From Candidatus Parcubacteria bacterium (lineage in GTDB: Bacteria > Patescibacteriota > Minisyncoccia > Phycocordibacterales > Phycocordibacteraceae): a stretch of 50,259 nt of DNA. Positions 956 to 17,611 of this stretch are shown piece after piece. The translations under genes and the position numbers were made by a program. How positions within the stretch are numbered: the stretch's first letter is position 1; the number at the start of each line of letters is the position of its first letter. The stretch is from the NCBI GenBank assembly GCA_034666125.1, contig JAXDML010000010.1, forward strand, positions 1 to 50,259, read 5' to 3'. The notes below the pieces were generated by a model, which worked only from the letters and a program-made list of their open reading frames with translations, did not search any database and was not told the origin of the DNA.

Positions 956-1412
956 CCATATACGTGTTAACAGCAGCCCAAAACCACGTACTACGGAGCG
1001 GATAGGTCGCAAGGCCTTTGCATGCGAATGCGCCGCCCCGGAAGGGGTGTTTTTAATTCAGGGCTGCCGCGAACCACGTGCACCTTGAAAACTGAATACG
1101 TAAGGTAATCAACGAGCTTCTACGAAAGTAGGAGTGAAATTGATATTGCAATCACAGAAAATTAAGTTAAGTGGTATTCAGGTTTCCGCACTGGAAACTG
1201 AAGGGTGCACGGTGGATGCCTTGGCTTATGCATGCGATGAAGGACGTGACTAATCTGCGAAATGCTTCGGGGAGGCGATATGTAGCCTGCGATCCGGAGG
1301 TGTCCGAATGGGGAAACCCGGCCAGTAATGGTCATCTTGCCCGTATGTGGCAAGAAGCGAACCTGGGGAAGTGAAACATCTCAGTACCCTGAGGAATAGA
1401 AAGCAATAGAGT

Positions 1413-1456
1413 GTTGCCTTCCGTCTGTTCGATCACTCGAACGGATGGAAGGCAAC
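1413..1456 (+). other. Hairpin insertion (expansion/IVS-like) in 23S domain I
   Basis: 20-bp stem GTTGCCTTCCGTCTGTTCGA-TCAC-TCGAACGGATGGAAGGCAAC inserted between the conserved AAAGCAA and GCGATTCCC blocks. Confidence 0.7.
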
Positions 1457-1461
1457 TCCCG

Positions 1462-1493
<32 letters not shown>

Positions 1494-1730
1494 GAAGCCC
1501 AAACCTCTTTCTTCGGAAAGGGGGGTTGTAAGGTAGGAGCTCCGTACTTGTACGGCAAGAGTTACAAAGGATGTCTATAGCGGAAGTTGCTGGGAAGCAA
1601 CGCCACAGAGGGTAATGGCCCCGTACGCGAAATACACATCTCTCTTGTGCTCCTATTCTTGAGTAGTTCGAGACACGAATAGCTCGAATGAATCTGCCGG
1701 AACTAACCGGTAAGGCTAAATAATGCATAG

Positions 1731-1776
<46 letters not shown>

Positions 1777-2459
1777 GAGAGGGGAGTGAAATAGAACTGA
1801 AACCGTGTACTTACAAAGGGTTAAGGGGGGCGTTCGCGTCCTTCTTAGCGTGCCTATTGAAGAATGAGCCTGCGAGTGTATGTATGTTGCCCATGGCTAA
1901 GTCCGTTACGGGACGGAGCCGCAGGGAAACCGAGTGTGAATAGCGCGTTAGTAGCATACATACGACCCGAAGCCAAGTGAGCTTGCCATGGGCAGGTTGA
2001 AGTGTGTCGAAAGACACATGGAGGACCGAACCCGTAGATCGTACAACGTCTTGGGATGACCTGTGGCAAGGAGTGAAAAGCTAATCGAACTTGGTAATAG
2101 CTGGTTCTCTCCGAAACAGCTTTTGGGCTGGCGTCGTGTGATCCCTCCGGGGGTAGAGCACTGGAAGGGACAAATAGGGGGAAACCTCGTTGTTCCTATC
2201 AAACTCCGAATACCGAGAGGTTACAGCACGGCAGTTAGACGGTGGGGGCGAAGCTCCACTCGTCGAAGGGGGAAGAGCCCTAGATCGCCAGTTAAGGTCC
2301 CTAAATTAACGCTCAGTACAACTTAAGGAAGTGAGGATCCTTTGACAATGAGGATGTTGGCTTAGAAGCAGCCACCATTTAAAGAAAGCGTAACAGCTCA
2401 CTCATCGAGGGTCCTTGCGCCGAAGATAATCGGGGTTAAGCGTTATACCGAAACTGCGG

Positions 2460-2517
2460 GCTTGCATATTGCATGGTGCGCGCGATTTATTTCGTGTGCA
2501 CCATGCAGTGTGCAAGC
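2460..2517 (+). other. Long hairpin at 23S helix 45 (IVS-like)
   Basis: About 26-bp stem GCTTGCATATTGCATGGTGCGCGCGA / TCGTGTGCACCATGCAGTGTGCAAGC between CCGAAACTGCGG and GGTAGGAGAGCG. Confidence 0.7.
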
Positions 2518-3248
2518 GGTAGGAGAGCGTTCGCATCCGCGATGAAGCCAAAGGGGTGACCCATGGTGGAGCGTTGCGAAGTGAGAATGCAGGCACAAGT
2601 AACCACAATGCGGGTGAGAACCCCGCACGTCGAAAGAACAAGGTTTCCTCAGCTATGATGATCAACTGAGGGTTAGTCGGGCCTAAGGGGATGGCGAAAG
2701 CCGCACCCGATGGACACATGGTTAATATTCCATGACCGATCATGTATGCGATGGAGTGACGGATTGTTGTACCTGCTGCCCATTATTGGATTTGGGTCCG
2801 TGAGTGAGAAGGTCTTCTAGGCAAATCCGGAAGACATTAACTTCGAGCAGAGCGGCAATGTTCTCCCACGGGGGAGCAGAGAGCAGGGAGCACGGTTCCA
2901 AGAAAAACTTCTAAGCTTCAGTACATGACGACCGTACCGGAAACCGACACAGGTGTTCAGGTCGAGTAGACTAAGACGAACGAGTGAGAGGTCCTCAAGG
3001 AACTCGGCAAAAAAGCGGCCGTAAGTTAGCGATAAGGCCTGCCCCCAGCAATGGGGGCCGCAGCGAAAGATTTTCTGCCAACTGTTTACCAAAAACACAG
3101 CTCCCTGCGAACTCGTAAGAGGATGTATAGGGGGTGACGCCTGACCAATGCCGGAAGGTCAAGCACGGAAGGTGATATGTCTTCGGACGTGTTGCTGGAT
3201 CGTATAAGCCCCGGTGAATGTCGGCGATAACTATAATCGTCCTAAGGT

Positions 3249-3443
3249 TCCGTATCTGAGCGATCGGGTACGGAACGGATTGGGACGATTATAGGAGACC
3301 GTAAACAGTTCTGAGAAGATTGCGTCATAAATAGCTACCTCTTTCGACCGAAAGGTTGATTGAATCCGCGACTCAAATGAGAGGCCATACGTCGCGCCCC
3401 TAGCAATAGGGTGAAGATATGGTCCTACTGTGAGGAATAGTAG
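3249..3443 (+). ncRNA. Group I-type intron at 23S position 1931 (E. coli numbering), 195 nt, ORF-less
   Basis: Interrupts CCTAAGGT^AGCGTAATTCC; 5' exon ends in U and intron ends in G; P7 GAGGCCA/TGGTCC, J8/7 GAAGATA, and P3, P8, P9 are recognisable. Confidence 0.85.
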
Positions 3444-4104
3444 AGCGTAATTCCTTGTCTGGTAAGTTCAGACGTGCACGAATGGCGTAATGAGTGGAAA
3501 ACTGTCTCGAGGACTCGCTCGGTGAAAATGCAATACCGGTGAAGATGCCGGTTACCCGTAGTTAGACGAAAAGACCCCAGGAGCTTTACTACAGCTTGAT
3601 ATTGGGGCTGTGTGATTCATGCGTAGCATAGGTGGGAGGCTTTGAAGCAGATCTTTCGGGGTTTGTGGAGCCGCCAGTGAAATACCACTCTTGAATTGTG
3701 CAGTCTCTAACCCGGTTAAGAACTAATCGGGAACAGTGTCTGGCAGGTAGTTTTAGTGGGGCGCTATCCTCCTAAAAAGTAACGGAGGAGTCTATTAAGG
3801 TCCGCTAGGCGCGAATGGAAACCGTGCCGATAGTGTAATGGCATAAGCGGGCTTAACTGCAAGGGGTACATCCCGCGCAGATGCGAAAGCAGAGCATAGT
3901 GAACCGATGGTCCGCCTTAGATGCGGCCAGAGATTAACGGATATAAGTTACCCTGGGGATAACAGGCTAGTTCCGCCCAAGCGTCCATAGCGACGGCGGA
4001 GTTCGGCACCTCGATGTCGGCTCACCTTAGCGCGGGGCTGGAGAAGGTCCCAAGCGTTTGGCTGTTCGCCAATTAAAAAGGTACGCGAGCTGGGTTCAAA
4101 CCGT

Positions 4105-4410
4105 GAGGGAATTGACTAGCAATAGTTGATTCTCTCACCGTTTGAATCCCTTCGAGATTTCTGTTGTCAGAACTTGAAAAAGTGCGAAGTGAATGTCTTT
4201 TCGTCTTGAAATTAAGATAGAACCAACCACGACACGGCGGTCATGCGCAGGAATGTGTATGAACAAACTGACTCATATCGGTAGAACCCTACTCATTGCG
4301 AGGGGCGATACCGAGGGAAACCGAAAGGTGCCCGTAGAGACTGAATGTCAGTCATCGAGAACCGATGAAGTTACAGTCCGATCCCCCGAGTAACCGGGGC
4401 AAACGAAATG
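4105..4410 (+). ncRNA. Group I intron at 23S position 2593, 306 nt, ORF-less
   Basis: Interrupts TTCAAACCGT^CGTGAGACAG; ends in G; P3 ACTGAC/GTCAGT, P4 TCGGTA/TACCGA, P6, P7 GAGACTG/CAGTCC, P8 and P9 present. Confidence 0.92.
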
Positions 4411-4787
4411 CGTGAGACAGGTTGGTCTCCTATCTACTACGGGCGTTGATTCTTGATGAGTGTTGCCCCTAGTACGAGAGGACCGGGGTGAACTGACCTC
4501 TGGTCTACCAGCTGTTGTGCCAACAGCACCGCTGGGTAGCTATGTCGGGACGGGATAACTGCTGAAAGCATATAAGCGGGAAGCCCACTCAAAGATTAGG
4601 AATCGTTATGAGACACCTAGCAGACTACTAGGTTGATAGGCTCTAGATGTACGCACAGCAATGTGTTCAGTCGAGGAGTACTAATATGTCCAATGTTCCC
4701 AGTGCGGAATTCTGTATGTCACTGACTTAAGATAGTGTTTGCATATACCTTACGTATTCAATTTTCCGGAAATAAACGCGCCCGGAA

Positions 4788-4897
4788 CGCTGGTGATTCA
4801 TCGGAGGGGCCATACCCGTTCCCATTCCGAACACGGCAGTCAAGCCCTCTTGAGCCGATGGTACTCCGAAAGGGGGAGAGTAGGTTGTCGCCAGCGT
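4788..4897 (+). rRNA. rrf: 5S rRNA (ends approximate)
   Basis: CCCGTTCCCATTCCGAACACGG and GAGAGTAGG...GCCAG motifs; helix I CTGGTG/CGCCAG. Confidence 0.95.
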
Positions 4898-16152: not shown

Positions 16153-17611
16153 CTTAATGAGAGTTTGATCCTAGCTCAGGATGAATGCTGGCTGTATGGA
16201 TAAGGCATGCAAGTCGAACGGACCGCAAGGTCAGTGGCAGACGAGGTAGTAACACGTACGAACGTACTCCCAAGTCGGGCATAGCCAACCGAAAGGTTGG
16301 GTAATTCCCGATAGTCCCTACGGGGTAAAGATTTATCGCTTGGGAAGCGGCGTGCGTAGTATCAGCTTGTTGGTAAGGTAACGGCTTACCAAGGCTACGA
16401 CGCTTAGGGGAGCTGAGAGGCTGACCCCCACCGATGGGACTGAGACACGGCCCATACTCCTACGGGAGGCCGCAGTCGAGAATCTTCCGCAATGGACGAA
16501 AGTCTGACGGAGCGATACAGCGTGGTGGATGAAGTGCTTCGGTACGTAAACACCTTTTATGTGGGACGAAATTATTGACGGTACCACATGAATAAGGGGC
16601 TCCTAACTCTGTGCCAGCAGGAGCGGTAATACAGAGGCCCCAAGCATTATCCGGAATCACTGGGCGTAAAGGGTGTCAAGGCGGTCATGTTAGTCGTTCG
16701 TAAAATCCGTGGGCTCAACCTACGGCTCGCGAGCGAAACGGCATGACTAGAGGTCGGGAGAGGTGCGTGGAACTCACGGTGTAGGGGTGAAATCCGTTGA
16801 TATCGTGGGGAACACCAAAGGCGAAGGCAGCGCACTGGTCCGAATCTGACGCTCACACACGAAAGCCAGGGTAGCGAATGGGATTAGATACCCCAGTAGT
16901 CCTGGCCCTAAACGTTGCTCGCTCGCTTTACGGAGTATCGACCCTCTGTGAGGCTAAGCTAACGCGGTAAGCGAGCCGCCTGGGTAGTACGAGCGCAAGC
17001 TTAAAACTCAAAGGAATAGACGGGGACTCGCACAAGTGGTGGATCATGTGGCTTAATTCGTAGCTAAGCGAAGAACCTTACCAGGGCTAGAAACCAAGCT
17101 GCACGCCTCCAGAAACGGAGGAAGCCTTCGAGGGTGCTTGGCAGGTGATGCATGGTTGTCGTCAGTTCGTGGCTTGAGCTGTTCCCTTCAGTGGGGTAAC
17201 GAACGCAACCCCCGTTGTCTGTTACTTATGTCAGGCGAGACTGCTCCCTCACGGGAGAGGAAGGTGGGGATGACGCCAAATCAGCATGTCCCTTGATGCC
17301 CTGGGCTGCACACGTGATACAATGGCCGGTACAGAAGGACGCAATACCGCAAGGTGGAGCAAATCCCAAAAACCTGCCCCAGTACGGATTGAGGTCTGCA
17401 ACCGACCTCATGAAGCCGGAATCACTAGTAATCGTAGGTCAGCCATACTACGGTGAATACGTTCTCGAGTCTTGTACTCACCGCCCGTCAACTCAAGGAA
17501 GTTGGAAGCGCCCGACATCTTGTCCAGTACAGGACTACGGCGAGTTCAATGACAGGGAGTAAGTCGTAACAAGGCACGGCTAGCGGAAGCTGGTCGTGGA
17601 ACATATCCAAT
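16153..17611 (+). rRNA. rrs: 16S rRNA (no intron seen; ends approximate)
   Basis: AGAGTTTGATCCTAGCTCAG, GGATTAGATACCC, AAACTCAAAGGAATAGACGG, AAGTCGTAACAAGG. Confidence 0.98.

Follow-up and report, generated by a model that had tools for sequence, protein, structure and literature searches.

Group I-type introns with a putative exon-clamping module at two sites in the 23S rRNA gene of a Candidatus Parcubacteria bacterium

Few features of group I introns are as constant as the U.G wobble at their 5' splice site and their P4-P6 domain, and the receptor of this wobble, J4/5, is carried by P4-P6. The accessible part of PMC11270868 lists 1931 and 2593 as frequent positions of insertions into 23S genes of the Candidate Phyla Radiation (CPR), names organellar, Thermotoga, Simkania and CPR examples at these sites, and classes just 45% of 23S insertions as group I. 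Two engineered systems also resemble what is described here. Trans-splicing group I ribozymes gain efficiency from an extended guide composed of P1, an internal loop and an additional duplex (available portion of PMC6155759), while group I ribozymes deprived of P4-P6 are weakly active, a T4 td mutant being about 1000-fold slower than the full-length form (available portion of PMC2879505). Here we analyze two introns that interrupt the 23S rRNA gene of a Candidatus Parcubacteria bacterium (assembly GCA_034666125.1), both on the forward strand of contig JAXDML010000010.1; the window, meaning the whole stretch of DNA analyzed, comprises positions 1 to 50,259 of this contig. These elements are probably group I-type introns that carry an additional clamp module within the P1 loop and use a canonical internal guide for catalysis.

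Exon-intron helices and internal guides

The 23S rRNA gene extends from 1189 to 4706 (Rfam RF02541, 2333.5 bits, model positions 1-2925), and the Rfam large subunit (LSU) alignments leave two insertions of 198 and 312 unaligned nucleotides (nt) within it. By matching the flanks to the Rfam LSU consensus alignment, intron 1 was delimited at 3249-3443 (195 nt) and intron 2 at 4105-4410 (306 nt), at sites that we take to be L1931 and L2593, respectively, in E. coli numbering. In both, the last exon base is U (U3248, U4104) and the terminal intron base is G (G3443, G4410). Intron 2 is a group I intron with P4-P6; intron 1 is a group I-derived mini-intron that has none.

BLAST searches against 401 genomes of the phylum returned only partial matches for each intron, and these gave the first relatives. 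Scanning genome contigs with an exon-based pattern (at least 120 stretches), combined with earlier loci, yielded at least 109 distinct L1931 insertions with both boundaries. A scan of metagenome contigs (at least 120 stretches), also combined with earlier loci, provided at least 99 distinct L2593 insertions, its pattern being biased against introns beginning with C. A clamp was scored at L1931 when the first part of the intron contained 13 nt complementary to the end of the exon with at least 10/13 pairs, preceded by a GGAYU-like motif, and at L2593 when at least 11/13 pairs were present. Covariation at L1931 was evaluated in 20 aligned members without P4-P6, hereafter minis; the sample contains 21 distinct minis of 178-254 nt, 20 of which belong to the 39 clamp-type introns, the other being L083.

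Long helices between the 5' exon and the beginning of the intron dominate the minimum free energy (MFE) folds of both introns, with z = -6.09 for intron 1 and -5.16 for intron 2 and no shuffled sequence folding as well. In the fold of intron 1, U3248-A3275 and G3247-C3276 are followed by a 1x3 internal loop and by the pairing of 3231-3245 with 3280-3294. The clamp itself consists of exon strand 3231-3243 and intron strand 3282-3294, which match in 13/13 positions (95% of cells paired in 20 sequences), and the 5' hairpin at 3249-3274, capped by a GCGA loop, is followed directly by A3275 and C3276, the bases able to pair with U3248 and G3247. Intron 2 repeats this layout with exon strand 4092-4104, of which 4100-4104 doubles as the exon strand of P1, a 5' hairpin with a GCAA loop at 4105-4136 that stacks directly on the clamp in the MFE fold, and intron strand 4137-4149. 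Here U4104-A4137 and G4103-C4138 precede a C4102xC4139 mismatch, after which ten pairs join 4092-4101 to 4140-4149.

The clamp pairing goes beyond chance, because the 13-nt exon complement reaches 13/13 in intron 1 and 12/13 in intron 2, whereas the best ungapped complement in relatives without the element is 7-10/13 at L1931 and 8-10/13 at L2593. The element was found in 39/109 distinct L1931 insertions, with L083, L121 and L078 borderline besides, and in 67/99 distinct L2593 insertions; one of the latter, L192, proved a false positive on inspection, leaving about 66, and about eight weaker cases lie within the remaining 32. Two columns of the L1931 clamp track exon variation with compensatory changes in the 20 minis (CG 13, UA 6, UG 1; GU 11, CG 7, UA 1). 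The L2593 clamp pairs at -5 to -12 in 66-67/67, and exon -6, either A or G, is met by U or by C/U with zero mismatches. Closer to the splice site, -4 is paired in 54/67 and -3 in just 19/67 (CxA 33, CxC 13, CxU 2), and U(-1) faces A in 59 introns, G in 6 and another base in 2. Judged by these pairing rates and compensatory changes, the clamp helix is evidently under selection.

The hairpin that precedes the clamp is equally recurrent. It begins at intron base +1 in 38/39 L1931 clamp-type introns, leaving one nucleotide (36 introns) or two (3 introns) before the strand designated d below, and in 60/67 L2593 relatives nucleotide +1 pairs with the nucleotide before the clamp. Altogether, 60-230 nt are inserted between splice site and guide at L2593 and 50-120 nt at L1931. 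The linker from clamp to guide in L1931 clamp-type introns displays a conserved GUAAACA-like motif, often also AUCAUUACA, and is otherwise variable. Insertions at L1917 (5), L1951 (15) and L2604 (5), a small and mostly non-CPR sample, have no clear clamp; their best complements of 8-12/13 fall mostly at ordinary-guide positions.

Both introns possess a guide of canonical type downstream of the clamp and just before P2. In intron 1, the guide GCU-A-CCU occupies 3334-3340: GCU (3334-3336) pairs with 3' exon 3444-3446 to form P10, A3337 with the splice-site U3248, and CCU (3338-3340) with 3245-3247 to form P1, whose exon strand AGGU is 3245-3248. In intron 2, the guide CACG-G-CGGU at 4233-4241 pairs through CACG (4233-4236) with 4411-4414 (P10), through G4237 with U4104 in a wobble, and through CGGU (4238-4241) with 4100-4103 (P1). 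The motif G[CU]U-R-CC[UC] stands downstream of the clamp in 39/39 clamp-type L1931 introns, and L1931 introns with a short P1 carry the same motif at offset 5-13, followed by UUAG. In the 20 aligned minis, P1 cells are paired in 98.8% and P10 cells in 100%, with U-A in 20/20. The guide of clamp-type L2593 introns reads CACGGCGG in 62/67 and CAUGGCGG in 2/67; it lies 14-191 nt past the clamp and directly before a hairpin and P3, and its equivalent in short-P1 L2593 introns, CAYU-GCGU, is found at offset 4-6 from the splice site. Across both kinds of L2593 intron the guide covaries with the exon: where exon -4 is A the guide has U (18/18), and where it is C the guide has G (76/76), apart from two exceptions (94/96); three more introns showed no guide.

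The core of intron 2 is that of a group I intron. A P2 hairpin (4242-4261) directly follows the guide, and the core at 4267-4378 comprises P3 (4267-4272/4347-4352), P4-P6 (about 4276-4333), P7 (4339-4342/4375-4378) and P8 (4353-4367) in the alignment to Rfam RF00028, which matches P3, P7, P8 and J8/7 and aligns P4, P5 and P6. The score against this model is 25.1 bits (E = 0.00063; 4181-4400, model positions 1-253), under the gathering score of 50, and the model puts P1 at 4181-4207, off the guide. In sum, the sites, guides, core and terminal G of these elements are those of group I introns, and self-splicing with exogenous G is putative. The terminal G shows no variation in the aligned L1931 minis (20/20). 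Five full-size clamp-type L1931 introns (L003, L076, L089, L101 and L134) end in A, U or C by their exon-motif boundaries, reflecting either shifted boundaries or a true lack of the terminal G.

On comparative grounds, the long helix is best described as an insertion into the P1 loop, and no substitute for the guide, because a conserved canonical guide sits downstream of it in both introns. Likewise, the U-A pair of the long helix would not be the reactive pair, because L2593 members bearing P4-P6 keep the guide G yet in the long helix have A facing U(-1) (59/67); full-size L1931 members behave in the same way. An earlier note, made on this DNA from its letters alone, had recognized the helices correctly: its pairs, its mismatch and internal loop, and its GCGA and GCAA loops are all present in the sequence and in the MFE folds, and the non-canonical geometry that it saw at both sites (U(-1) with A, an interruption at -2/-3 and a long helix) recurs in the relatives. 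Its further view, that the helix replaces P1 and that no obvious alternative guide exists, gives way to the guides at 3334-3340 and 4233-4241, which provide P1 and P10 in the canonical place before P2 and share their motifs with short-P1 relatives at the same sites. The note had itself named a conserved alternative P1 containing U.G and supported by covariation, together with normal addition of exogenous G, as the observation that would overturn it, and such a P1 is what intron 2 has (guide in 64/67; covariation in 94/96).

The reduced intron 1 and its junction

Intron 1 finds no match to RF00028 even at E<=10. Its remaining core (3368-3424) consists of P3 (3368-3372/3391-3395), P7 (3383-3387/3420-3424), P8 (3398-3411) and J8/7 (3412-3419), and can be aligned column for column with L003 and L005, whose scores against that model are 48.3 and 27.7 bits. 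Only 10 nt separate the 5' strands of P3 and P7. Where five full-size relatives have P4-P5-P6, intron 1 and three other short members show a gap of about 75 columns, and the flanks of this gap (P3 on one side, J6/7-P7-J7/3-P3' on the other) align cleanly. In the L1931 minis P3 covaries (GC 10, AU 8, GU 2) and the AAGA of J8/7 is invariant. A scan of the organism's own genome with an 11-nt motif for a P4-P6 encoded in trans returned 34 matches, compared with 42 for the reversed control.

The loss of P4-P6 is accompanied by a change at the splice site. Among the 39 clamp-type L1931 introns, the wobble position of the guide is A in 20/20 without P4-P6 (and also in L083) and G in 18/19 with P4-P6, the exception being L034. 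Intron 1 has no U.G at its 5' splice site, U3248-A3337 being a Watson-Crick pair contributed by the guide. This A is stably kept across minis whose mean column identity is 52%. That U-A goes with the loss of P4-P6 fits the role of J4/5 as wobble receptor.

A further helix connects the clamp region to the core. Strand d (GGAUU, 3277-3281) pairs with strand d' (AAUCC, 3363-3367), which comes after the P2 hairpin (3341-3354) and leads straight into P3. In the 20 minis 95% of its cells are paired, with double changes from GC to UA and from CG to UA, and a full 5/5 complement of d follows P2 in 30/39 clamp-type L1931 introns. The strands of intron 1 thus run in the order exon clamp strand, P1 exon strand, hairpin, d, clamp strand, linker, guide, P2, d' and P3, and the linkers at the points of strand exchange are mostly 0-3 nt in the 39 L1931 relatives. 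With this geometry, clamp, P1, P2 and d-d' can meet as one four-way junction, and we infer that they coexist. A kink-turn or loop-E motif was considered for the internal loop of intron 1 and dropped on inspection by eye, the tandem G.A signature being absent.

The 3' exon also seems to be held. The P9 hairpin and the terminal G occupy 3426-3443, and the P9 loop (AGGAAU, 3433-3438) is complementary to 3' exon positions 3450-3455 (AUUCCU), 7-12 nt beyond the splice site; in the 20 minis this pairing holds in 96.7% of cells. It appears to constitute a 3' exon clamp in the form of a pseudoknot, so that both exons of intron 1 would be clamped. A comparable candidate at L2593, an 8-nt complement (including G.U) of exon +12 to +19 in 27/66 introns, was rejected; it lies inside the conserved 5' strand of P7 and is probably a coincidence.

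These results also refine what the earlier note had said of the 5' splice site. The U-A pair that it proposed for both introns stands for intron 1, although with A3337 and not A3275, and does not stand for intron 2, which has a normal U4104.G4237 wobble. Its association of U-A with loss of the wobble receptor is retained for intron 1, where the pair goes with the loss of P4-P6, while the alternative first step that it derived from this is not needed, canonical guides being present. G3277 and G3278, which it had offered as possible wobble partners of U3248, are engaged instead with C3367 and C3366 in the covarying d-d' helix. Finally, the internal loop of intron 1 is real in its MFE fold and does not hold as drawn for the family, where A3245:U3280 can pair in 2/20 and G3247:C3276 in 3/20.

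In one relative (L002:1197-1485, minus strand), a second intron scoring 54.7 bits, above the Rfam group I threshold, lies about 10 nt of exon downstream of the L1931 mini-intron.

Excision in vivo and competing explanations

Evidence of splicing comes from three metatranscriptome runs of another study, available as contigs, from which ends are not visible, and not as reads. Contigs join 3248 to 3444 (runs X2 and X3) and 4104 to 4411 (run X5), exactly at the predicted junctions, and their pieces on the exons show 0 differences. The contigs give no RNA cover in either intron, which is uninformative on the levels of excised introns, and the DNA run X1, which contains the entire stretch and may be where it came from, is continuous. 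The nearest of 107 other L1931-bearing loci differs at no fewer than 9 of 146 covered 3' exon positions (at least 9/146), and therefore the perfectly matching contigs come from this or a very close organism. Both introns are apparently excised precisely in vivo, with ligation of the exons. An intervening sequence processed by RNase III was rejected as an explanation: the RNA contigs cross both junctions, so that the rRNA is ligated and not fragmented, and the sites are group I sites, not the 23IS2 or 23IS4 sites described in the accessible part of PMC11270868.

The reading that we favor, a clamp added to an otherwise canonical guide, would work as follows. The P1 loop would have gained a module in which a hairpin, starting at the first intron base, precedes a 13-nt strand that complements the 5' exon; the module would clamp this exon and bury the U of the splice site by pairing it with A. 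Catalysis would proceed through the canonical guide before P2, which would align the two exons by forming P1 and P10. In intron 2, P1 and the clamp share exon positions -1 to -4/-5, and the guide would have to displace the last four to five clamp pairs, weakened by the common -3 mismatch. In intron 1, the exon bases by the splice site would be largely free in the clamp, the four-way junction could form, and the reactive pair would be U3248-A3337. As for its purpose, we propose that the clamp holds a large, folding rRNA exon beside a short P1.

Nearest-neighbor energies describe the cost of the exchange in intron 2. Across the L2593 family the mean opening cost is 9.5 kcal/mol (n=37) for introns with the -3 mismatch, 15.1 kcal/mol (n=16) where -3 and -4 are both paired, and 6.8 kcal/mol (n=9) where both are mismatched. 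According to this model, the -3 mismatch lowers the opening barrier and does not abolish it.

Several observations weigh against the favored reading. Freeing exon positions -1 to -5 in intron 2 costs 10.1 kcal/mol and the P1 duplex returns -5.3 kcal/mol; the closed helix is therefore favored energetically, and the switch would need help from tertiary contacts, stacking or protein. The clamp pairs at -1 (65/67) and -2 (67/67) are conserved at L2593, and therefore a covering of the splice site, in competition with P1, is itself selected. In intron 1, P1 has just 4 bp and P10 just 3 bp, and the exon is invariant among minis, so that covariation inside their P1 is impossible. The guide-exon covariation and the pattern of A or G against P4-P6 are differences between clades. 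In a tree of 29 L1931 introns (21 minis and 8 full-size introns of up to 461 nt, drawn from the 39 clamp-type introns and L083), 15/26 inner branches are open and the minis require two changes on the best tree, one also being allowed; the minis may therefore have a single origin, and the count of 20/20 A would then be one event. As for the RNA, the shorter side of the joints measures 25-26 nt, below the advised 30, and the joined contigs may derive from an intron-less strain.

The conserved cover of the splice site suggests another role for the helix, namely a pure anti-P1 switch, akin to the P(-1)/P1 competition of Tetrahymena pre-rRNA, that hides the 5' site until the core and 3' exon have been made or an assembly signal arrives, and that melts fully without holding the exon. 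Conservation of the -1 and -2 pairs that compete with P1, a closed state favored by about 5 kcal/mol in intron 2 and the early transcription of the clamp element, which is made first, would all suit such a device. Yet the best conserved positions, -5 to -13 (66-67/67; 95% at L1931), lie outside P1, and at L1931 the clamp, P1, P2 and d-d' fit one junction with linkers of 0-3 nt, which speaks for coexistence, while the 3' exon clamp has no masking role there. A pure switch is accordingly considered unlikely; the clamp may nonetheless also act as a timer or mask, a role inseparable here from the holding of the exon.

We give much less credit to the idea that the long helix is itself the substrate helix, docking with a reactive U-A so that the first step differs from the canonical attack of G on a P1 marked by U.G. 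This idea draws on the long helix being the most stable local structure, on the same conserved pairs at -1 and -2, on U(-1) being able to pair with A in about 35/39 L1931 relatives, and on the recurrent interruption at -2/-3, which resembles a specific geometry. It conflicts with the conserved guides and P10 of both introns, homologous to the guides of short-P1 relatives, with the P4-P6-intact members that combine guide G and long-helix A, and with the retention of terminal G, P7 and J8/7 in both introns; furthermore, exon -2 to -4 is unpaired in the long helix in 18/20 minis, and the opposing intron bases have covarying partners elsewhere.

Least probable of all is a helix that serves as a platform for a protein (maturase, assembly factor or double-strand RNase) or as a stand-in for the interrupted native rRNA helix, letting pre-50S assembly precede splicing: the Rfam consensus does pair the last two exon bases at L2593 with an A and a C in the 3' exon (window 4417-4423), followed by an unpaired A and more pairs, the clamp of most L2593 members starts with a similar A-C-(A/C)-G, and the sampled clamp-type L1931 introns mostly lack an open reading frame and mostly come from records with CPR titles (as we take these phylum names to be grouped), but the clamp pairs without gaps in a register other than the native one, the stand-in idea fails to carry over to L1931, whose splice-site U has no pairing in the Rfam consensus, no protein partner was identified, and double-strand cleavage would cut the exon.

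The clamp-plus-guide reading can be taken one step further for intron 1, with distinctly less assurance and only as a tentative proposal. The minis (178-254 nt, in several CPR lineages by record title) may form a natural class derived from group I introns that lacks both P4-P6 and the wobble and splices in vivo, with a 4-bp P1 ending in U-A held by the four-way junction and by the 3' exon clamp of the P9 loop, a scaffold in place of J4/5 docking; on this view the L2593 clamp would apply the same principle independently.

Two features of the genomic setting deserve mention. The genome amounts to 723 kb in 10 contigs, and its rRNA order is not the usual 16S-23S-5S, because 23S and 5S (1189-4896) stand about 11 kb upstream of 16S (16153-17611) on the same strand, with a tRNA after 16S. 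The 23S gene also contains two long, near-perfect hairpins, at about 1411-1460 and 2458-2520, in seemingly extra sequence; these hairpins may represent intervening sequences or else expansion segments, like those assigned to RNase III sites in the accessible part of PMC11270868.

Relation to known systems

If the proposed arrangement is true, introns without wobble and P4-P6 that are yet exactly excised would have another way to position the substrate helix, and the minis, at about 180-200 nt, would offer a small test system. Exon clamps may be the means by which introns in single-copy rRNA genes of tiny genomes keep a short P1 in place despite a large exon that folds. A literature search, with most subscription journals outside its range, turned up no account of exon clamps and none of natural group I introns without P4-P6. 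The minis escape the Rfam group I model, which may explain some of the unclassified CPR rRNA insertions reported in the accessible part of PMC11270868.

Compared with canonical group I introns at L1931 and L2593, the two introns have the same sites, guide motifs (GYU-G-CCU... and CAY-N-G-CG-K), P10, P3-P7-P8 core, J8/7 and terminal G; they differ in the hairpin and the 13-nt exon clamp over the splice site, and intron 1 differs further by the absence of P4-P6 and by the A at the wobble position. Competition for splice-site bases has a precedent in Tetrahymena pre-rRNA, where a 5' exon helix, P(-1), competes with P1. There, the competitor lies within the exon, whereas here it is supplied by the intron, shows both conservation and covariation, and reaches 8-9 pairs past P1. 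A natural bacterial departure from a near-universal splice-site rule of group I introns is likewise not without parallel, as a 23S intron of Coxiella burnetii, going by the title of its description, reportedly lacks the canonical terminal G; that deviation concerns the 3' terminal G, while the present one concerns the 5' U.G pair.

Among engineered systems, the extended-guide trans-splicing ribozymes share with these introns a short P1, an internal loop and a long additional duplex with the substrate (available portion of PMC6155759). As described there, they bind the substrate 3' of the splice site from their own 5' end, whereas in the natural case the 5' exon is bound by a clamp located in the P1 loop, and this clamp overlaps P1 or adjoins it. 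The minimal P3-P7 ribozymes engineered without P4-P6 correspond to intron 1 in its retention of P3, P7, P8, J8/7 and P9. In contrast to those constructs, intron 1 is natural and widespread (21 distinct minis sampled), is apparently spliced in vivo, and is accompanied by putative exon clamps and a junction.

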